Source: Eubacteriales bacterium
GTDB taxonomy: Bacteria > Bacillota > Clostridia > Christensenellales > CAG-138
Length of the DNA: 64,000 bases
Direction of reading: 5' to 3'
Assembly: GCA_028694155.1 (NCBI GenBank)
Contig: JAQUTY010000003.1
Span: 4,178 to 68,177, forward strand
Shown here: positions 2,459-51,735 of the stretch, piece after piece
Numbering within the stretch: the first letter of the stretch is position 1
Layout of the letters: each line of letters opens with the position of its first letter
Position numbers and translations under genes: made by a program
The notes under the pieces: model-generated
Database searches by the model: none
Told to the model about the DNA's origin: nothing
The model's input: only the letters and a program-made list of their open reading frames with translations

Positions 2459-2541
2459 GCGGTAGTGCTGGAACTGGCAGACAGGCACGTTTGAGGGGCG
2501 TGTGCGCAGGCGTATGGGTTCAAGTCCCATCTACCGCACCA
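2459..2541 (+). tRNA. tRNA-Leu (anticodon GAG)
   Basis: GCGGTAG acceptor pairs with CTACCGC followed by ACCA. Anticodon stem CACGT/GCGTG with loop TTGAGGG. Long variable arm. T-loop GGGTTCAAGTCCC. Confidence 0.9.
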
Positions 2542-2601: not shown

Positions 2602-2630
2602 TTGACATGCAGGCAAATGAGTGCTATTAT
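2602..2630 (+). promoter_or_regulatory. sigma-A type promoter of the metQNI transcription unit
   Basis: TTGACA 2602-2607, 17-nt spacer, TATTAT 2625-2630. Confidence 0.7.
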
Positions 2631-2667
2631 GCCTAAAAAGATAATATATTCTTGAGAAAGGGAAAAT

Positions 2668-2754
2668 ATGAGCGTTCTATTCGGAACAAACAACATGTAC
2701 ATGTCTATGATGATGCGGAGCAAAGATTGCCGGATCATGCGTTGGCGTGTGTAA
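2668..2754 (+). CDS. candidate Met-rich leader peptide (28 codons) in the metQNI leader
   Basis: ATG 2668 with AAGGG 5 nt upstream. Translation MSVLFGTNNMYMSMMMRSKDCRIMRWRV, stop TAA 2752-2754. 7 of 28 codons are ATG. It lies between the promoter and the leader terminator. Confidence 0.5.
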   Translation: MSVLFGTNNMYMSMMMRSKDCRIMRWRV

Positions 2755-2789
2755 CGATTAGATACGCAAACTGCAGACGAAGCAATCTT

Positions 2790-2815
2790 TGGAAGCCGCG
2801 GGCTTCTGTTTTTTT
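2790..2815 (+). terminator. intrinsic terminator inside the metQNI leader (attenuator)
   Basis: GAAGCC 2792-2797 pairs with GGCTTC 2801-2806 (GCG loop), followed by TGTTTTTTT. It sits 30 nt upstream of the metQ start. Confidence 0.65.
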
Positions 2816-2844
2816 ACTCAAAAATAAACTAAGGAGAAACAATC

Positions 2845-3687
2845 ATGAAAAAAATCATCACTTTGACACTACTGGTACTATTTGCACTGACTCTGGTTGT
2901 CGGCTGCACGGGCAGTAAGGGAATTACGATTGCCGTTCCAAACGATACGACAAATGAAGCGCGTGCGTTGCTTCTGCTTGAGGATCTTGGCTATATCAAG
3001 CTTAAGGATGGCGTAGGAATAACGGCTACCATTTTAGATATTGCGGAGAATCCCTACAACATAAGCATTAAAGAAGTCGAAGCAGCCCAGCTTCCGAACA
3101 TTCTACCCGATGTTGATTATGCGGTTATCAACTCTAACTATGCTATTTCCGCTGACTTAGATCCGCTTAATGATTCACTAGCAATAGAAGGTTCATCATC
3201 ACCATATGCAAACATTCTTGCCTGCAAATCCGGCAATGAGAACAGCGACAAGATTAAGGCTCTTAGTGCAGCTCTTAGGAGCCAACAGGTTGCCGACTAT
3301 ATCACCGCTCAATATGCAGGCGCAGTAGTTAGCGTAGTTGATGATCCTACCGATGGGTTTGATCCAACAGTTGACTATGCTGCTCTTAACGGTACTTCAA
3401 TATCTGTTGCGGCCTCGCCAACTCCTCATGCTGAGATATTGAAAATTGCCGCTGACATTCTTGCTCAAAAAGGAATTGAGCTGCGAATTGTTGAGTTTAC
3501 GGATTATGTTCAACCAAACTTGGTTGTAGAAAGTGGCGAGATTGATGCCAATTACTTCCAGCATGTTCCTTATCTTGATGATTTCAATGCTAACAACAGC
3601 ACCAATATCGTATCTGCTGCGCTTGTACATGTCGAACCCATAGGACTATACGGTGGCAAGCAAAGCAGCCTAAGCGCAATCGGATAA
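2845..3687 (+). CDS. metQ: methionine ABC transporter substrate-binding lipoprotein (MetQ/NlpA family)
   Basis: RBS AAGGAG. Lipobox LVVGC. NlpA-family sequence throughout. Followed by metN and metI. Confidence 0.9.
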   Translation: MKKIITLTLLVLFALTLVVGCTGSKGITIAVPNDTTNEARALLLLEDLGYIKLKDGVGITATILDIAENPYNISIKEVEAAQLPNILPDVDYAVINSNYAISADLDPLNDSLAIEGSSSPYANILACKSGNENSDKIKALSAALRSQQVADYITAQYAGAVVSVVDDPTDGFDPTVDYAALNGTSISVAASPTPHAEILKIAADILAQKGIELRIVEFTDYVQPNLVVESGEIDANYFQHVPYLDDFNANNSTNIVSAALVHVEPIGLYGGKQSSLSAIG

Positions 3688-3699
3688 TGGTGCGCAAGA

Positions 3700-4710
3700 A
3701 TGATAGAGCTAATCAAGCTATCAAAAACGTATAAGACTGACAAGAGCGAGTTTGAAGCACTCAAGGACATTTCGCTTACCATTGCTGACGGCGATATTTA
3801 TGGAATTATTGGCATGAGTGGAGCAGGGAAAAGTACACTTGTACGCTGCATCAATCTTCTTGAAGTGCCATCTTCCGGCGAGATAAGAATAGATGGAAAA
3901 AACATTCAGCACTTAAATGGCGCAGAATTAAGATCTCTGCGGCGATCTGTCTCGATGATATTTCAAGGATTCAACCTGTTGATGCAGCGAAACTGCCTTG
4001 CCAATGTTCGCTTTCCGCTTGAGCTTGAGGGGATGCCAAAAAGACAAGCAAACAAACGTGCATTAGAGCTTCTTGAACTTGTTGGGCTATCTGATAAAGC
4101 CAAGGAGTATCCATCACGGTTATCGGGTGGTCAGCAGCAGCGAGTGGCAATCGCCCGAGCATTGGCAACAGATCCAAAGGTGCTGCTTTGTGATGAGGCA
4201 ACCAGTGCGCTCGATCCTAAAACGACTTCAGACATACTGAGCCTTATCAGGGACATACATGACAAGCTGGGTATCTCTGTCATAGTTATTACACATCAAA
4301 TGAGCGTCATAGAGACAATATGCACAAAAGTAGCTGTGTTGGATAATGGCGTAGTTGTCGAGGAGGGCAGGGTGGACGAAGTCTTTTCTTCGCCACGCTC
4401 TGCTGCGGCAAAAACGCTCGTGTATCCTGAGGGATATTTAGAATACACAAATACGCAGATTGCTGATCGCTGCATACGAGTAGTGTTTAACGGTGCTGAT
4501 GCAGCCGCAAAGCCATTGATAGCAAGAATGGCCATTGACCAGAGCATTGAGGCGAGCATTATCTTTGCGTCAACAAAGAGTATTTCGGGACGCATCTATG
4601 GTTCAATGCTGCTTGGAGTATCATCTGAAGATAACATTGCTGAGCGTACAATCCAATATCTATGCAAGACTGATGATATTCTTGCCGAGGAGGTAATCAA
4701 TGTTGACTAA
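3700..4710 (+). CDS. metN: methionine ABC transporter ATP-binding protein with C-terminal NIL domain
   Basis: Walker A GMSGAGKST, signature LSGGQQQRV, Walker B LLCDEATSALD, and a roughly 100-aa C-terminal regulatory domain. Confidence 0.92.
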   Translation: MIELIKLSKTYKTDKSEFEALKDISLTIADGDIYGIIGMSGAGKSTLVRCINLLEVPSSGEIRIDGKNIQHLNGAELRSLRRSVSMIFQGFNLLMQRNCLANVRFPLELEGMPKRQANKRALELLELVGLSDKAKEYPSRLSGGQQQRVAIARALATDPKVLLCDEATSALDPKTTSDILSLIRDIHDKLGISVIVITHQMSVIETICTKVAVLDNGVVVEEGRVDEVFSSPRSAAAKTLVYPEGYLEYTNTQIADRCIRVVFNGADAAAKPLIARMAIDQSIEASIIFASTKSISGRIYGSMLLGVSSEDNIAERTIQYLCKTDDILAEEVINVD

Positions 4711-5398
4711 TTTAGTACAATCTTCGTTTTCCGAGCTAGGCTCGATAGTGGTAAATGAATTTCCAAGTGCTTTAATTGCAACGCTATTTGTCACGTTGAC
4801 AGCAACGCTGTTTGCAGTGATATTAGGATTGCCCCTGGGTGTTCTGCTGGTAGCAGGAGGGAGCAGCGGAGTGATTAGGCTCCCAAAGGCAGTTGTTCGC
4901 ATTCTAGGATTTATCACCAATATTCTAAGGTCCATTCCATTTTTGATTCTGATGATCATGGTTTTTCCTCTCAGCAGGCTCATAATAGGTACGACAGTGG
5001 GAACGGTCGCTTCAATTGTACCCCTTGTGATTGCTTCATTTCCGTTTGTTGCAAGATTGGTGGAGAGCAGCCTAAGAGAGGTCGACATGGGATTGATTGA
5101 GATGGCAAAGAGCATGGGGGCGACACCCTTTCAGATTATTGTCAAGGTAATGCTTAAAGAGAGCATTCCATCGCTGATATCCAACCTTACAATCGCCATT
5201 ACCACCATACTGGGCTATTCGGCAATGAGTGGAATAATTGGTGGCGGAGGTCTGGGACAAATTGCAATCAATTATGGATATTATAGATACAAGTACCTAG
5301 TGATGGTAGCAGCAGTCCTCGTTCTAATCGTATTGGTGCAACTGTTTCAATCGTTAGGTAATGCACTTGCAAAAAAGTGCAACAAACGCCTGCGCTAA
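4700..5398 (+). CDS. metI: methionine ABC transporter permease
   Basis: Overlaps the metN stop by 11 nt. Polytopic BPD-type permease (EVDMGLIEMAKSMGATPFQII EAA-like loop). Confidence 0.9.
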   Translation: MLTNLVQSSFSELGSIVVNEFPSALIATLFVTLTATLFAVILGLPLGVLLVAGGSSGVIRLPKAVVRILGFITNILRSIPFLILMIMVFPLSRLIIGTTVGTVASIVPLVIASFPFVARLVESSLREVDMGLIEMAKSMGATPFQIIVKVMLKESIPSLISNLTIAITTILGYSAMSGIIGGGGLGQIAINYGYYRYKYLVMVAAVLVLIVLVQLFQSLGNALAKKCNKRLR

Positions 5399-5466: not shown

Positions 5467-6378
5467 ATGTACGATAGCAAAAAGTATTATGGATTCATAG
5501 TTCGTGGAGATTTGAAAAGTGCGGTTGAGTATGTGAAGGAATTTCCCTTGCAGCACAGGCGATATAAACGCTATGTCAACCTTCTCTGTTCAGTTAAGCC
5601 ACATAGATTTTGCAGTGATAAGGTTATCAACGAGATTTGTAATATCTACGCAAAATATTGGAATAGTGTGTTCTGGCTTCTTAACGAAGGGAATGAAGCT
5701 GAAAGAACTCTGCTTGATGATCTGAATGCTTTTATTTCTGATGGTGTTTACGCCGATATTGATTCGGCAGAAGAAAAACTGAAAATACTGGTTGAAAATC
5801 GTGGTTTTCACTTTCAAGGTGGTATGACACAGGGCTACTGGGGGCCGTATATATGGAAAAAGACGAATCGCAAGATATATTCCGTCAAGCTTCCGCACGC
5901 GTTTGAACGCTATCCTCTTGATATGATGACAGGTTTTGTCTGCTGTAGCTGGATGGACTATATCTCTTTGGGCAGAATTGGGACTGGTGGTTGGGCCGGA
6001 GATGATGGAACATTAGCCTGTGTCAAGAAACGCTATTTTGGGTATATGCATACCTCACGGTTCAAGGTTAATTTTTTGAAGCATGAGGCACAACACGCAT
6101 TTGACAAGCGAAGCAATCCCGATATTACATCCGTACAGCTTGAGTATAGAGCAAAGCTTGTTCAGATTATTTACGGAAAAAATCTGCGAGCCTTTGCAGG
6201 CTTTTTATCTGAAGCTGACGGCAGCAAGGAAGAGAACAGTCACGCATACGCTTCGAACCTGCTGGTGTCTAATCTGACAAAATTGGTTTTTAATGAAGAA
6301 TACGTCAATGACCTCGACAGATGGAAGAAGGAACAAAATAAGATTAAATCCGCAGCACTGAAACTGCTTGATGCCTGA
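5467..6378 (+). CDS. hypothetical protein with HExxH motif (possible metallopeptidase-like)
   Basis: ORF 5455..6378. ATG 5467 is preceded by GAGGG. Motif LKHEAQHAFD. No terminator between metI and this gene. Confidence 0.6.
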   Translation: MYDSKKYYGFIVRGDLKSAVEYVKEFPLQHRRYKRYVNLLCSVKPHRFCSDKVINEICNIYAKYWNSVFWLLNEGNEAERTLLDDLNAFISDGVYADIDSAEEKLKILVENRGFHFQGGMTQGYWGPYIWKKTNRKIYSVKLPHAFERYPLDMMTGFVCCSWMDYISLGRIGTGGWAGDDGTLACVKKRYFGYMHTSRFKVNFLKHEAQHAFDKRSNPDITSVQLEYRAKLVQIIYGKNLRAFAGFLSEADGSKEENSHAYASNLLVSNLTKLVFNEEYVNDLDRWKKEQNKIKSAALKLLDA

Positions 6379-25086: not shown

Positions 25087-25163
25087 TGGTGGAGCTTAGG
25101 GGATTCGAACCCCTGATCTCTACACTGCCAGTGTAGCGCGATAGCCAACTTCGCTAAAGCCCC
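25087..25163 (-). tRNA. tRNA-Ala (anticodon GGC)
   Basis: Reverse complement GGGGCTTTAGC...CTACACTGGCAGTGTAG...GGGGTTCGAATCCCCTAAGCTCCACCA. G3:U70 pair present. Anticodon loop CTGGCAG. Confidence 0.9.
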
Positions 25164-46779: not shown

Positions 46780-46866
46780 TGGTGCGGGAAACAGGACTTG
46801 AACCTGCATGAAATTGCTTTCACACGGACCTGAACCGTGCGCGTCTGCCAATTCCGCCATTCCCGC
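46780..46866 (-). tRNA. tRNA-Leu (anticodon CAG)
   Basis: Reverse complement GCGGGAATGGCGGAATTGGCAGACGCGCACGGTTCAGGTCCGTG... Long variable arm, ends TTCCCGCACCA. Confidence 0.9.
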
Positions 46867-46874
46867 TAATAAAA

Positions 46875-46959
<85 letters not shown>

Positions 46960-46989
46960 ACGTATTTATTAAAGGTATTAAGTTGTCAA

Positions 46990-47065
46990 TGGAGCTGGAG
47001 ATGGGACTCGAACCCGCGACCTGCTGATTACAAATCAGCTGCTCTACCAATTGAGCTACTCCAGC
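46990..47065 (-). tRNA. tRNA-Thr (anticodon TGT)
   Basis: Reverse complement GCTGGAGTAGCTCAATTGGTAGAGCAGCTGATTTGTAATCAGCAGG... One C-A mismatch in the T stem. Confidence 0.85.
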
Positions 47066-47070
47066 AAAGT

Positions 47071-47146
47071 TGGTGCCTCAGAGTGGACTTGAACCACCGA
47101 CACAGGGATTTTCAGTCCCTTGCTCTACCAACTGAGCTACCGAGGC
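47071..47146 (-). tRNA. tRNA-Phe (anticodon GAA)
   Basis: Reverse complement GCCTCGGTAGCTCAGTTGGTAGAGCAAGGGACTGAAAATCCCTGTG... Confidence 0.9.
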
Positions 47147-47149
47147 ACA

Positions 47150-47226
47150 TGGCGACCCGGAGGGGGCTCGAACCCCTGACCTCCAGCGTGACAGGCTGGC
47201 ATTCTAACCAACTGAACTACCGGGCC
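47150..47226 (-). tRNA. tRNA-Asp (anticodon GTC)
   Basis: Reverse complement GGCCCGGTAGTTCAGTTGGTTAGAATGCCAGCCTGTCACGCTGGAGG..., ends GCCA. Confidence 0.9.
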
Positions 47227-47247
47227 ATCTTGTCTCGAACAGCAATT

Positions 47248-47324
47248 TGGTGGGCCTTCAGGGACTCGAACCCCGGACCAATCGGTTATGAGCCGACCGC
47301 TCTGACCAACTGAGCTAAAGGCCC
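47248..47324 (-). tRNA. tRNA with CAT anticodon (body resembles lysidine-type tRNA-Ile2; elongator Met not excluded)
   Basis: Reverse complement GGGCCTTTAGCTCAGTTGGTCAGAGCGGTCGGCTCATAACCGATTGG... Confidence 0.85.
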
Positions 47325-47332
47325 AATGTTAC

Positions 47333-47408
47333 TGGTGACCCCGAGGAGACTCGAACTCCTGTTACCGCCGTGAAAGGGCGGTGTCTTAGACCGCTTGACC
47401 ACGGGGCC
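47333..47408 (-). tRNA. tRNA-Glu (anticodon TTC)
   Basis: Reverse complement GGCCCCGTGGTCAAGCGGTCTAAGACACCGCCCTTTCACGGCGGTAAC... Confidence 0.9.
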
Positions 47409-47418
47409 ACAATACAAT

Positions 47419-47495
47419 TGGTCGGGGTGAGAGGATTTGAACCTCCGGCCCCATGCTCCCAAAGCACGTGCGCTACCGGACTGCGCTACACCCCG
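47419..47495 (-). tRNA. tRNA-Pro (anticodon TGG)
   Basis: Reverse complement CGGGGTGTAGCGCAGTCCGGTAGCGCACGTGCTTTGGGAGCATGGGG... Confidence 0.9.
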
Positions 47496-48845: not shown

Positions 48846-51482
48846 CTATCTCTCTTTTATGAGCAATTCTCTGCGATGCTGCAGCTTTGAAAGCATATCC
48901 CGATACATCTCGAGCTTTCGCTGTTCTTCGGCAACTACGTTGGCAGGCGCCTTTGCAACAAAGCTGGGATTGGACAGCTTGCCGTTTGCACGATTCATCT
49001 CGTTTTCGGCGTTCTTTAGCTCTCCTTCAATTCTGCCAAGCTCGACTTCTATATCCACAAGCGATGCAAGCGGAATGATTGCCTCTGCCCCATCGCACAC
49101 AAGATGAATGTCGCTTGCCTTTTGGCTCTTCGTTTCTGCGCAGATGACAATTTCGCTAATTCCTGCAAGTCTCATAAAGTATGGCTTTGCCGTCTCAAAA
49201 GCAGTGGCATCTTTGACAATGATTTCGGCGGATATCTTTTGTGAGGGCGGAACCTTCATCTCGGCTCGAAGATTTCGAATTGAGCGGATCAAGTCCATCA
49301 CTATGTCCATATGCTTCATATCATCTACAAAGACACAGTTTTCATCGGTCTTAGGCCAATTGGACAGCATAATGGTCTTATCAGAGTTGGGAAGCTGCTG
49401 ATAAAGCTCCTCGGTGATAAACGGCATGAATGGGTGCAGGAGCTTTAACGACTTAGTAAGAACGTCAATAAGAACTGCTAAAGTGTTGTTTTTCTGATTC
49501 GCTTGGTCGCTGTATAAGGCCGGTTTTGCCATCTCAATATACCAGTCGCACAGTTCTGTCCAAATGAAGTCATAAATCTTTTGTGCTGCAATGTTGAGTT
49601 CATGTGCATCAAGATTCGAGGTCACCTCTCCGATTATGTTATCCATGCGTGTAAGTATCCACTTATCCGCCAGAGTAAGGAGTTTTTCATCGATAGAGTA
49701 TTCCACATCGTCTTCTACACTCATCAGAACAAATCTGGAAGCATTATAGACCTTGTTGCAGAAATTACGGGCAGCTTCAACCTTCTCGATATAAAAGCGC
49801 ATATCATTACCTGCGGAATTCCCTGTAATCAGCGAAAAGCGCAGTGCATCCGAACCGTAGTCCTTCACTATCTCAAGCGGATCTATGCCGTTTCCAAGCG
49901 ATTTCGACATTTTTCTGCCTTGAGAATCACGCAACAGACCGTGGATATATACCGTGTCGAAGGGCTTCTCCCCCATCACCTCATAACCAAACACGATCAT
50001 TCGAGCAACCCAGAAGAAAATTATGTCGTAACCTGTAATCAACGTGCTCGTGGGGTAAAAATACTTCAATTCCTCCGTGTTGTCCGGGTACCCCAGCGTA
50101 GAGAAGGGCCACATGCCGGAGCTGAACCATGTATCCAGCACGTCCTCATCTTGACGCATGGGCTGACCGCATTTGGGGCAAAGCTCCACATTCTCCTCAG
50201 ACACAACAGTCTCGCCGCAGGCATCGCAATAGTAGGCAGGTATACGATGACCCCACCAAAGCTGACGCGAGATGCACCAATCACGGATATTCTCCATCCA
50301 GTTATAGTAAGTCTTGGTGAATCTTTCGGGAACGAACTTAATCTCTCCATTTCGTACAGCTTCCAAAGCAGGCTTGGCAAGTGGTTTCATGTCCACAAAC
50401 CACTGCTTTGACACTATGGATTCGCTGGTTGTATGGCATCTGTAGCAGGTGCCAACATTATGCTTGTAGTTTTCAATCTTGACTAAATTGCCACAAGCTT
50501 CTAGTGCGTCCACCAACTGCTTTCTGCATTCAAAGCGGTCAAGCCCTTCAAACCGTCCGCCAAGCTCATTTATGTGACCGTCATCTGTAAAGACTCGCAT
50601 AATAGGCAGTCCACATCTCTGACCCACCTCAAAGTCGTTAGGATCGTGTCCCGGAGTGATTTTTACAGCACCAGTGCCAAAATCCATTTCGCAATACTCA
50701 TCAGCGACAATAGGAATTTCACGGTTTACCACAGGAATGATTACGGTCTTGCCTATGATATCGGTGTATCTTTCATCTTTTGGATTGACCGCTATGGCAG
50801 TATCGCCAAGCATTGTCTCGGGTCGTGTTGTTGCCACAGTAATGCTGTAACTCTTATCGGGTGCATCATAACGAATATGCCAAAGATGGCTGTCCTGCTC
50901 CTGATACTCAATTTCAGCGTCCGAAAGAGCCGTCTTGCAGCAAGGACACCAGTTAATAATTCTGTCGCCCCTGTAAATAAGCCCCTTGTCATACAAACGC
51001 TTGAATACCTTGAGCACTGCTTTGTTGCAACCATCGTCCATGGTGAAACGCTCACGTTCCCAATCGCATGAAGAGCCGAGTTTTCTTAGCTGTTTGACGA
51101 TTGTTTTTCCATATTCATTTCGCCAATCCCATGCACGCTTCAAAAAGGCTTCTCTGCCAATGTCTTGCTTGTGAATGCCTTCCTTTGCCATCTGCTCGAC
51201 AATCTTGACCTCGGTTGCGATGGATGCATGGTCTGTGCCCGGCAGCCAGAGCGTCTCATATCCCGACATACGCTTATAGCGAATCAAAACATCTTGCAAA
51301 GAGTTGTCAATCGCATGTCCCATATGTAGCTTGCCTGTAATGTTGGGTGGTGGAATCACAATGCAATATGGTTTCTTTTGTGGATTTGGCTGGGCATGAA
51401 AGAAGCCGGACTCCTCCCACCATGAGTACAACCTGCTCTCCACTGACGAATGGTCATAACTTTTTGGTAGCTCTTGTTTCAT
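48846..51482 (-). CDS. valS: valyl-tRNA synthetase
   Basis: HMGH (HIGH) and KMSKS motifs, CP1 editing domain, C-terminal coiled coil. ATG 51482 follows GAGGTG. The track start 51521 lies inside the T-box terminator. Confidence 0.96.
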   Translation of the reverse strand: MKQELPKSYDHSSVESRLYSWWEESGFFHAQPNPQKKPYCIVIPPPNITGKLHMGHAIDNSLQDVLIRYKRMSGYETLWLPGTDHASIATEVKIVEQMAKEGIHKQDIGREAFLKRAWDWRNEYGKTIVKQLRKLGSSCDWERERFTMDDGCNKAVLKVFKRLYDKGLIYRGDRIINWCPCCKTALSDAEIEYQEQDSHLWHIRYDAPDKSYSITVATTRPETMLGDTAIAVNPKDERYTDIIGKTVIIPVVNREIPIVADEYCEMDFGTGAVKITPGHDPNDFEVGQRCGLPIMRVFTDDGHINELGGRFEGLDRFECRKQLVDALEACGNLVKIENYKHNVGTCYRCHTTSESIVSKQWFVDMKPLAKPALEAVRNGEIKFVPERFTKTYYNWMENIRDWCISRQLWWGHRIPAYYCDACGETVVSEENVELCPKCGQPMRQDEDVLDTWFSSGMWPFSTLGYPDNTEELKYFYPTSTLITGYDIIFFWVARMIVFGYEVMGEKPFDTVYIHGLLRDSQGRKMSKSLGNGIDPLEIVKDYGSDALRFSLITGNSAGNDMRFYIEKVEAARNFCNKVYNASRFVLMSVEDDVEYSIDEKLLTLADKWILTRMDNIIGEVTSNLDAHELNIAAQKIYDFIWTELCDWYIEMAKPALYSDQANQKNNTLAVLIDVLTKSLKLLHPFMPFITEELYQQLPNSDKTIMLSNWPKTDENCVFVDDMKHMDIVMDLIRSIRNLRAEMKVPPSQKISAEIIVKDATAFETAKPYFMRLAGISEIVICAETKSQKASDIHLVCDGAEAIIPLASLVDIEVELGRIEGELKNAENEMNRANGKLSNPSFVAKAPANVVAEEQRKLEMYRDMLSKLQHRRELLIKER

Positions 51483-51729
51483 ATCAATCACCTCAAGATA
51501 AAAATAGTCCCGCATCGTCAAAGGACGAAGCGGGAGCTCGCGGTACCACCTTTGTTAGACGACATATAGATCGTCTCACTCGAAGCTATAACGCAGCTGC
51601 TGCGGGTACAACTAATTGTTCATTGCACCGACTCCAAAGCGACATTCAACGATTTCGTTCCAAAGGGCTCTTACAGCAGCTGAGTCCTCTCTCTGTTGGC
51701 GATTGCGTCTACTCCTCTTTTTCCACGTC
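51483..51729 (-). promoter_or_regulatory. T-box riboswitch leader, Val specifier (GUU), with terminator
   Basis: Minus-strand T-box AACAAAGGTGGTACCGCGAG (plus 51537-51556). Stem I AGAGAG and GTAAGAG elements. CAGCTGCTG/CAGCAGCTG helix. GTT-A specifier at 51592-51589. Terminator stem 51508-51535 plus a T run. Confidence 0.9.
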
Positions 51730-51735
51730 TTGTTG

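Follow-up and report, generated by a model that had tools for sequence, protein, structure and literature searches.

The metQ leader of the window

The methionine importer operon metQNI occupies positions 2845-5398 on the forward (+) strand of a 64,000-nucleotide (nt) stretch of the Eubacteriales bacterium contig JAQUTY010000003.1, and the leader in front of it carries a short upstream open reading frame (uORF) rich in Met codons, followed by an intrinsic terminator. We refer to the whole 64-kb stretch as the window and give positions from its first letter; our subject is this leader, analysed here as a candidate ribosome-mediated transcription attenuator of the importer genes. A first-pass annotation of the window had proposed such a reading and had named the downstream genes as a methionine importer. 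Pfam confirms the latter, with metQ at 2845-3687 (+; Lipoprotein_9), metN at 3700-4710 (+; ABC_tran plus NIL) and metI at 4700-5398 (+; BPD_transp_1), the record of the window MetQ being annotated merely as 'MAG: Eubacteriales bacterium'.

Upstream of the uORF lies a sigma-70-type promoter (2602-2630, +), in which the boxes TTGACA (2602-2607) and TATTAT (2625-2630) are spaced by 17 nt and the second is preceded by TG-n; 11 of 12 consensus positions and the TG are present, and transcription should start close to 2637. Three related loci (L081, L086 and L171) have a TTGACA-17-TAnnAT promoter in the corresponding position ahead of their uORF. The Shine-Dalgarno (SD) sequence of the uORF, AGAAAGGG (2655-2662, +), stands 5-6 nt 5' of the ATG and includes AAGGG (2658-2662), 5 nt ahead of the ATG, as well as a longer anti-SD match, AGAAAGG (2655-2661). 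The uORF itself (2668-2754, +) comprises 28 codons plus TAA, with its stop codon at 2752, and encodes MSVLFGTNNMYMSMMMRSKDCRIMRWRV, a peptide with a single Cys. Its Met codons (n = 7) are codons 1, 10, 12, 14, 15, 16 and 24, and the five at codons 10, 12, 14, 15 and 16 form the regulatory cluster (2695-2715, +) at which we propose that ribosomes stall.

All seven ATG trinucleotides of the 208-nt leader are in the frame of the uORF. Five ATG within seven open in-frame codons arose in 3 of 100,000 shuffles of the leader (p about 3e-5), and the cluster pattern ATGNNNATGNNNATGATGATG occurs once in the 64 kb against an expectation of 0.04. Scanning all six frames for at least five ATG per 12 codons returned just one other place in the window, and a 64-kb search for Met-cluster uORFs before other genes of the window found none in an intergenic leader.

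A terminator scan placed the intrinsic terminator of the leader at 2790-2808 (stem, +), with the loop GCG and a T7 run at 2809-2815; its core pairs GAAGCC (2792-2797) with GGCTTC (2801-2806), followed by G plus T7, at -8.3 kcal/mol. Further downstream, the SD sequence of metQ, AAGGAG (2831-2836, +), is not sequestered by leader structures in our folds. Promoter, SD sequence, uORF with seven ATG (five of them in 2695-2715) and terminator had all been called at these coordinates by the first-pass annotation, and all match the sequence.

Met-rich uORFs in front of orthologous metQ genes

Related loci were drawn from species-representative genomes (L001-L080), from metagenomes (L088-L167) and from look-ups of closer MetQ homologues, and those for which 300 nt or more of upstream sequence was available, 169 in number, were counted. 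The criterion for a uORF was at least four ATG per 12 codons and an SD-preceded start codon, family uORFs being selected for an SD-like match (score of at least 4) located 3-12 nt before the start. An SD-led uORF with a run of Met codons is conserved in 99 of the 169 orthologous metQ leaders, and this recurrent architecture supports the earlier reading as a Met-codon leader-peptide attenuator.

The 99 leaders represent 72 distinct uORFs, from hosts labelled as Oscillospiraceae, Lachnospiraceae, Ruminococcus, Anaerovoracaceae, Christensenellaceae and others. Mostly led by AGGAG or GGAG as SD sequence, these uORFs range from 18 to 56 codons (median 36); internal Met codons number 7 in the median, and the first is usually found at codon 8-10. 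In total, 595 ATG lie in the reading frame, compared with 31 and 5 in the two alternative ones, and the reading frame has not a single stop in 2570 codons, compared with 252 and 55 stops in the alternative frames. Met accounts for 20% and Cys for 8.7% of their residues, as compared with 0.3% and 0.6% in the MetQ proteins. Two close relatives, L148 with MMMM and L159 with MMM, are one whole ATG codon apart. An intrinsic terminator follows 71 of the 72 uORFs, 15-56 nt past the stop codon and with a median of -18.7 kcal/mol.

What we term the main type has the consensus MKKLxxxxMMMMxMCMCxMCMxxxAxFSxxLS. Its Met-Cys and Met-Tyr alternations (AUGUGCAUG, AUGUACAUG) are quasi-palindromic and form a hairpin in most main-type leaders; the cluster of the window, MYMSMMM, is without Met-Cys alternation. 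Across the 120 positions x in MxM, Cys was counted 37 times, Met 17 times and Tyr 10 times, and Cys may be co-sensed or may serve structure, e.g. that of a pause hairpin. The hairpin formed by the alternation (MCMCSMCM, MYMC) measures about 10 bp, with examples in L040 (2713-2829), L031 (984-1112) and L075 (2673-2786).

Searches that started from the peptide led to the same operon. They returned 50 protein clusters, all of which are at most a 'hypothetical protein' and without a Pfam domain, and an exhaustive peptide profile search extended this to 95 clusters at 50% identity, almost all of 29-45 amino acids (aa). metQ-metN-metI lay immediately downstream in 9 of 9 places for which the context was looked up, with unrelated upstream neighbours; no regulon beyond metQ emerged, these nine peptide-based contexts from three look-ups all being metQNI.

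The window MetQ (280 aa) has zero internal Met, MetN has 8 and MetI 9, and internal Met is likewise absent from MetQ in 34 of 71 uORF loci, the mean number of Met in MetQ being 0.83 at uORF loci versus 1.32 at loci without a uORF. In MetQ, the most abundant component of the importer, this Met-poor composition looks like methionine sparing, and a Met-free MetQ fits a protein produced under Met shortage. As a separate observation, about 30 MetQ homologues (P0004-P0033), with 72-75% identity as measured for four, are 380-448 aa long as opposed to the usual ~280 aa, owing to an N-terminal extension of 100-160 residues, which could be mis-called starts through the leader or a genuine extra domain.

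Known RNA and peptide families

No S-box or T-box motif had been seen in the leader by eye, and database searches agree. Rfam 15 at gathering thresholds, run on the whole window, reports nothing in the metQ leader (its T-box and tRNA hits lie elsewhere), and a scan of 2400-2900 at E<=10 is empty except for tRNA-Leu. Rfam also gave no leader match in twenty related uORF-bearing loci, and searches of NCBIfam 20 and Pfam-A at E<=1 gave none for the peptide of the window or those of three relatives. S-adenosylmethionine (SAM) riboswitches (SAM-I/S-box, SAM-II to VI, SAM/SAH) were found neither in the window leader, at gathering thresholds or at E<=10, nor among 60 related loci scanned. The T-box model (RF00230) does not match the metQ leader either, though it detects a T-box leader elsewhere in the window (51518-51734, - strand; 118.5 bits, apparent GUC (Val) specifier), which indicates that the host organism employs T-boxes elsewhere, not for metQ.

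In orthologous loci the T-box does occur in this very position. Six of 40 scanned loci that lack a Met-rich uORF have a T-box as metQ leader (L005 2376-2627, L009 2656-2904, L012 469-717, L013 2651-2903, L018 2707-2956 and L046 2579-2826, mostly Lachnospiraceae), and the specifier is AUG (Met) in the three metQ T-boxes inspected. T-box and leader peptide swap naturally at one locus. In L005, a TwoAYGGAY RNA (103 bits) was additionally noted on the opposite strand between T-box and metQ (2718-2882, -).

The conserved features also bear on whether the ORF matters at all. A ligand or an oligomeric RNA-binding protein could bind the leader in a riboswitch- or TRAP-like manner, via the AUG triplets or the hairpin, with the ORF being incidental. 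AUG-UGC-AUG and AUG-UAC-AUG are quasi-palindromes, hairpins of Met-Cys runs are common among main-type leaders, Cys and, less so, Tyr are over-represented between Met codons, triplets at 3 or 6 nt spacing share one frame automatically, and the window leader folds better than its shuffles (z = -3.5), all of which such binding would accommodate. We nevertheless regard it as unlikely. A strong SD sequence plus an in-frame start occurs 7-12 codons upstream of the cluster in otherwise differing sequences, the frame is devoid of stops over its 2570 codons, the stop codon is placed ahead of the terminator, the MKK... N-terminus resembles a normal translation start, and close relatives differ by whole codons; translation predicts these features, for which a motif acting solely as RNA or as a protein-binding site gives no expectation. 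Besides, no Rfam family matches, the MYMSMMM cluster of the window is without Cys codons and yields a 4-bp hairpin only, and, for a TRAP-like protein, the AUG spacing is irregular (3, 6, 9 and 12 nt) and the in-frame SD and start would be unexpected. We infer from these sequence features that the uORF is a translated coding sequence, as the attenuator reading presupposes.

Alternative pairings in the leader

Two competing helices had been suggested in the peptide-coding RNA, and both pairings are present in the window: ATGATGCGG (2710-2718) pairs with CCGGATCAT (2730-2738) at 8 of 9 positions, and CAAAGATTGC (2721-2730) with GCAATCTTTG (2782-2791) at 10 of 10. Which of the two would act as antiterminator had been left unresolved, and our analysis assigns this role to the 10-bp helix together with a GCGG:CCGC extension (2715-2718 with 2796-2799). 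The antiterminator would thus consist of a 5' strand, B (GCGG-AG-CAAAGATTGC, 2715-2730, +, codons 16-21), and a 3' strand, C (GCAATCTTTG-GAAG-CCGC, 2782-2799, +). Strand C shares 2790-2791 (base) and 2796-2799 (top and loop) with the terminator 5' arm, and it is this overlap of the extended helix with the terminator that makes it an antiterminator. The B:C duplex is predicted at -22.0 kcal/mol versus -8.3 kcal/mol for the terminator.

The ATGATGCGG/CCGGATCAT helix, in turn, is the core of a long imperfect early hairpin (2698-2751, +; 2698-2718 with 2730-2751, loop 2719-2729), predicted as the minimum free energy structure of the untranslated leader before strand C is made. It would be at best an element of the region 1:2 kind, and folding offers slight indications that the early hairpin may act as an anti-antiterminator. 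As a conserved element the 2710-2718/2730-2738 helix was rejected: the window, L050 and L081 (7/9 pairs) have it, L086 does not. The early hairpin is also formed in L081, and L086 and L050 sequester strand B otherwise. A further candidate, a partner 'X' for the terminator arm within 2731-2781 that would turn the 10-bp helix into an anti-antiterminator, was rejected as well, none being found and P(terminator) being 0.8-0.99 with B masked.

Together with three other lineages, L081, L086 and L050, the window belongs to a small sub-type of four distinct sequences with the peptides MSVLFGTNNMYMSMMMRSKDCRIMRWRV (window), MNLTFERKYMCMSMMMRNKDCRILHRRAHRM (L081), MSAITRENMKMYMCMCMTMRSRDCCFVRRGMVRM (L086) and MAILSKVFSMAMCMRMMRTVSCRIMRLCV (L050). 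In BLASTN, the window leader matches L081 with 78% identity over 138 nt (E 1.6e-24), and shorter, weaker matches were obtained to L050/L126 (L050 E 1.6e-5) and L086 (E 2e-3); a weak link connects the sub-type to L078. As a source of further leaders of the window type, close MetQ homologues gave only L086 repeats or main-type leaders. The 5' half of L086 matches the main-type profile (E 9e-7), and the peptide of the window is 26% identical to the first main-type peptide. Judged by such similarities, the window may be linked to the main type only stepwise, via L086, be it through common descent or convergence.

Within the sub-type, the second of the suggested helices stands. RNAalifold on the four sequences recovers the 10-bp helix (2721-2730 with 2782-2791) abutting an invariant terminator stem, 94.5% of the cells of the extended B:C helix are paired as compared with 30-40% in slid controls, and three B:C pairs are changed on both sides, i.e. 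compensatory. The overlap of B:C with the terminator is larger in L050 and L086 than in the window.

A corresponding relationship is seen across the family, in which the conserved C-terminal 'FSxxLS' of the main type (...TCCGATnnGCTTTCC...) is complementary to the 5' arm and loop of the terminator or, alternatively, to the SD region. In 71 loci, the segment from the last clustered Met codon to the stop pairs better with the 5' arm of its own terminator than with those of other loci (-17.60 vs -14.89 kcal/mol, permutation p<=1e-4), and the same own-versus-cross test on 36 loci gave -13.85 vs -11.92 kcal/mol (p = 2e-4), from which it follows that the two strands co-vary. In the family, a median distance of 23 nt separates the last clustered Met codon from the start of the antiterminator strand, whose end lies a median of 3 nt ahead of the stop codon. 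This is the classical geometry, in which the strand is free when a ribosome stalls at the cluster and covered when it resides at the stop. In line with this, the terminator 5' arm was paired at 0.70 with the ribosome at a cluster Met codon versus 0.43 with the ribosome at the stop (p = 8e-13), and 0.70 also exceeds the 0.61 obtained with shuffled upstream sequence (p = 9e-6), all computed on transcripts cut before the terminator 3' arm.

Proposed mechanism and its standing

We propose, with a probability of roughly 65%, that the leader is a ribosome-mediated (leader-peptide) transcription attenuator that senses the charging of elongator tRNA-Met and controls metQNI. Transcription would start near 2637 and a ribosome would load onto the uORF. 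With Met-tRNA plentiful, it would pass the five clustered Met codons and strand B and reach the stop at 2752, where it would sit between B and C while the polymerase makes C and the terminator; B:C pairing being prevented, the terminator (2790-2808 plus T7) would form and the transcript would end near 2815. With Met-tRNA scarce, the ribosome would stall with Met codon 10 or 12 in the A site, opening the early hairpin (2698-2751) and leaving B free; B would then pair with C (2782-2799), hold the terminator 5' arm at its base and top and allow read-through into metQNI. The proposal builds on the observed sequence features, on the conserved frame, Met cluster and terminator, on the covariation of B and C and on the lack of a known RNA family in the leader; it supposes stalling, a suitable timing of ribosome and polymerase, and a response to methionine.

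Modelling of the ribosome position, in which only RNA 3' of the ribosome was folded and the ribosomal edge was set 12 nt beyond the first A-site base, gave P(terminator) of 0.0 at Met 10 and 0.2 at Met 12 of the window, 0.8-0.9 at Met 14-16, 0.8 at the stop codon and 0.28 without translation. For L086, the values were 0.0-0.5 at the four early Met codons, 0.8 at the last two, 0.9 at the stop codon and 0.91 untranslated. Read-through is thus predicted in the window for a stall at Met codon 10 or 12 alone, and the model fits the classical logic (starvation, early stall, antiterminator) for the first Met codons only. The AUG T-boxes found at the same place in orthologues and the Met-free MetQ support induction under Met shortage. 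An earlier scheme, equilibrium folding of the whole leader with a 28-nt ribosome mask and cross-ribosome pairs allowed, was discarded: it was uninformative for most members, because their terminators (-12 to -26 kcal/mol) always win, and for the window it produced an implausible antiterminator around a stop-parked ribosome, which is why it was replaced by 3'-only folding.

Several points weigh against this proposal. Translation of the uORF is itself deduced from sequence. The B:C covariation is that of four sequences, its compensatory pairs all come from one of them, L050, and 12 of 500 shuffles reach its score. The window is not picked up by an nhmmer profile built from 67 main-type leaders. 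The window terminator, at -8.3 kcal/mol, is the weakest but one of the family, and B:C takes only two basal and two apical stem positions, plus two loop positions, of its 5' arm. Moreover, the complete leader, when untranslated, is predicted to favour the antiterminator at equilibrium (P(terminator) 0.10-0.28), so that default termination must be kinetic. The last base of the final clustered Met codon (2715) is already the first of strand B, which in the family typically begins 12-25 nt more downstream, and stalls at Met 14-16 would accordingly cover part of B, with termination predicted; B also lies 22 nt before the stop, so that its blocking by a terminating ribosome assumes that no B:C pairing takes place around the ribosome. 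Equilibrium models are uninformative for L081, L050 and most main-type leaders, as they return the terminator in every case. Finally, the RNA polymerase of Bacillus subtilis outruns the ribosome, a behaviour that would hinder ribosome-coupled attenuation in Firmicutes. Should it be general in this phylum, the leaders would need a pause, which, as a speculation, the Met-codon hairpin might provide.

A translated uORF followed by a terminator need not be specific to Met, as it might sense general translation capacity or simply damp expression constitutively. Any slowing of the leading ribosome before B would give the same structural outcome, and leaders such as that of ermC, which sense the state of translation and not one amino acid (cited in PMC2965389), provide a precedent. 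Yet the enrichment of Met in uORFs (20% of residues vs 0.3% in MetQ), the fact that no coding feature other than the Met cluster is strongly conserved, and the downstream operon, which in the contexts looked up is always metQNI and is preceded in other loci by T-boxes with AUG specifiers at the same place, make an unspecific sensor improbable.

Even less credit goes to a reversal of the logic within the sub-type of the window, in which stalls at the MMM run (codons 14-16) would mask B and terminate transcription, metQNI being on when Met is available. In 4 of 4 sub-type sequences, 4-5 nt separate the last clustered Met codon from the onset of strand B, which speaks for it, as does the P(terminator) of 0.8-0.9 at Met 14-16 versus 0.10-0.28 without a ribosome. 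However, Met 10 and Met 12 are reached first and stalls there free B, the stop-codon state also terminates (0.8) when cross-ribosome pairing is disallowed, and the classical geometry of the main type, orthologous T-boxes that induce on uncharged tRNA, and a Met-free MetQ all favour attenuation that is relieved by Met shortage. A further reading, in which the product of the short ORF is a functional Met/Cys-rich micropeptide (metal-binding, redox-active or the precursor of a ribosomally synthesized and post-translationally modified peptide), co-transcribed with metQNI across an ordinary inter-cistronic terminator, is very improbable, since, even if gene callers predict a 31-45 aa protein in many assemblies and Cys-rich and Met-rich peptides can bind metals, the C-terminal 'FSxxLS' is explained by pairing with the co-varying terminator arm, the length varies from 18 to 56 aa, the identity of the window peptide to the first main-type peptide is as low as given above, no Pfam or NCBIfam entry matches, and no processing or export genes are nearby.

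A second conserved short ORF in metQ leaders

In 85 examined loci, the window not being among them, we noticed a second uORF. An SD sequence is followed by M-x-x-[DY]-F-E-x-L-[VI]-R-A-N-[FY]-R-[FN]-[GE]-R-M, the peptide ending in ...FEKLVRANFRFGRM with an invariant CGAAUGUG, after which TGA comes in 31 loci and a Cys codon in 54. At the nucleotide level, the string CGAATGTG does not vary and its Arg is encoded by CGA throughout. The remaining codons show synonymous changes, suggesting that the peptide is under selection. In 33 of 47 long-spacer leaders the second uORF lies between the first terminator and metQ, and it is also found in 19 of 62 loci without a Met-rich uORF; examples are L082 (about 1720-1776), L173, L175, L055, L067 and L049. 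In L081 and L086, the Met-rich uORF itself ends in the same ...RM-TGA, and the aligned place of the window (2755-2763) holds a degenerate CGATTAGAT. The second uORF is possibly a separate regulatory layer, acting as an arrest peptide or as a sensor through its Met/Cys codons.

Other features of the window and of related loci

Directly upstream of the metQ leader, ARAGORN places a tRNA-Leu(GAG) gene at 2459-2541 (+), preceded by a promoter-like site (2421-2449, +) and followed by a terminator of 17 pairs plus T-run (terminator scan; 2544-2580, +), which insulates the metQ leader against transcription from upstream. This tRNA is missing from the whole-window Rfam run at gathering thresholds, yet reaches 44 bits locally (gathering score 29), so that its absence is probably a filter artefact. 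Rfam further lists a cluster of eight tRNA genes (46783-47495, -) and a solitary tRNA gene (25090-25163, -). Behind the T-box with the apparent Val specifier follows an ORF of ~880 aa (48846-51480, -), presumably valS. Among the related loci, L055 has a cobalamin riboswitch 3' of metI (5800-5997, +), which may control a neighbouring B12-related or methionine-synthase-related gene.

Discussion

Leader-peptide attenuation is a textbook mechanism, with known specificities for Trp, His, Phe, Leu, Thr, Ile/Val and, by prediction, Cys. In Firmicutes, control of the methionine genes is generally ascribed to S-box riboswitches, T-boxes or proteins. In mechanism, the element proposed here is a leader-peptide attenuator of the trpL/hisL type, and as a family it matches nothing curated. 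With trpL, hisL, pheL, leuL, thrL and ilvL of Proteobacteria it shares a promoter-proximal, SD-led short ORF in which codons for the regulated amino acid are clustered, the alternative pairings 1:2, 2:3 and 3:4, an intrinsic terminator before the first structural gene and, in the main type, an antiterminator strand that ends at the uORF stop codon. It differs from them in its Met codons, in the control of a transporter rather than a biosynthetic operon and in its Clostridia hosts. There is no sequence similarity, and strand B of the window directly adjoins the codon cluster, 22 nt ahead of the stop. Another difference is that the same MetRS charges the initiator tRNA, so that a shortage of Met could also limit initiation on the leader.

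The leu/phe leader of Lactococcus is an example of a leader-peptide attenuator in a Gram-positive bacterium. A His leader has been described before hisS/hisZ in bacilli, at a time when regular leader peptides were unknown outside Proteobacteria and Actinobacteria (PMC2965389), and a Leu-rich ilv-leu attenuator peptide is reported in Staphylococcus aureus (PMC5794164). Like the His leader of bacilli, the Met-rich uORFs would represent ribosome-dependent attenuation in Firmicutes that replaces the T-box of relatives (PMC2965389). Amino acid, genes and taxa differ from those of the His, S. aureus Leu and Lactococcus leaders, to which there is no sequence relationship, and the Met leader family, with 72 distinct members and 95 clusters at 50% identity, is far larger than any of them. 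Another parallel is found in the Cys leader peptides predicted before cys/cbs operons of Actinobacteria, which have no terminator hairpin and for which Rho dependence was proposed (PMC1262725). Both are short ORFs with runs of sulfur amino-acid codons before sulfur amino-acid genes, and our main type is Cys-rich, too (8.7% Cys). In contrast to the Actinobacteria leaders, however, a strong intrinsic terminator is near-universal and Met dominates, the uORF of the window containing but one Cys codon.

With the Met T-boxes (RF00230), the proposed attenuator has in common its position before metQ, the sensing of tRNA-Met charging and the choice between terminator and antiterminator; a T-box, unlike the uORF, binds the uncharged tRNA directly and does not need translation. 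SAM riboswitches, similarly, are transcription attenuators before methionine genes, yet their signal is SAM and not tRNA charging. The first-pass annotation had not been aware of any described Met leader-peptide attenuator, and we, too, found no description of a Met leader peptide or attenuator in the full-text literature, with subscription-only papers not covered. On balance, we lean slightly towards the view that this is the first Met-sensing leader-peptide attenuator and that it stands for a large undescribed family (72 distinct, ~95 clusters) that controls metQNI in uncultured gut/rumen Clostridia in place of the Met T-box, with the second, peptide-conserved uORF, possibly an arrest peptide, adding a layer of control in many relatives.

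If true, Met would be a new specificity for leader-peptide attenuation. This entails a puzzle, in that the leader needs initiation with Met-tRNAfMet at the very time when elongator Met-tRNA is limiting, and would imply that elongator Met-tRNA can be read separately from the initiator tRNA. It would also imply that ribosome-polymerase coupling suffices for attenuation in many Clostridia and that this mode of control is common in a lineage of Firmicutes. The finding would identify what regulates the principal methionine importer of many abundant uncultured gut/rumen bacteria and would account for dozens of 'hypothetical' ORFs of 30-45 aa in their assemblies. The natural variation among these leaders, comprising the main type, the sub-type of the window and the tandem arrangement with a second uORF, should be useful for dissecting how such switches evolve and how a T-box is replaced.

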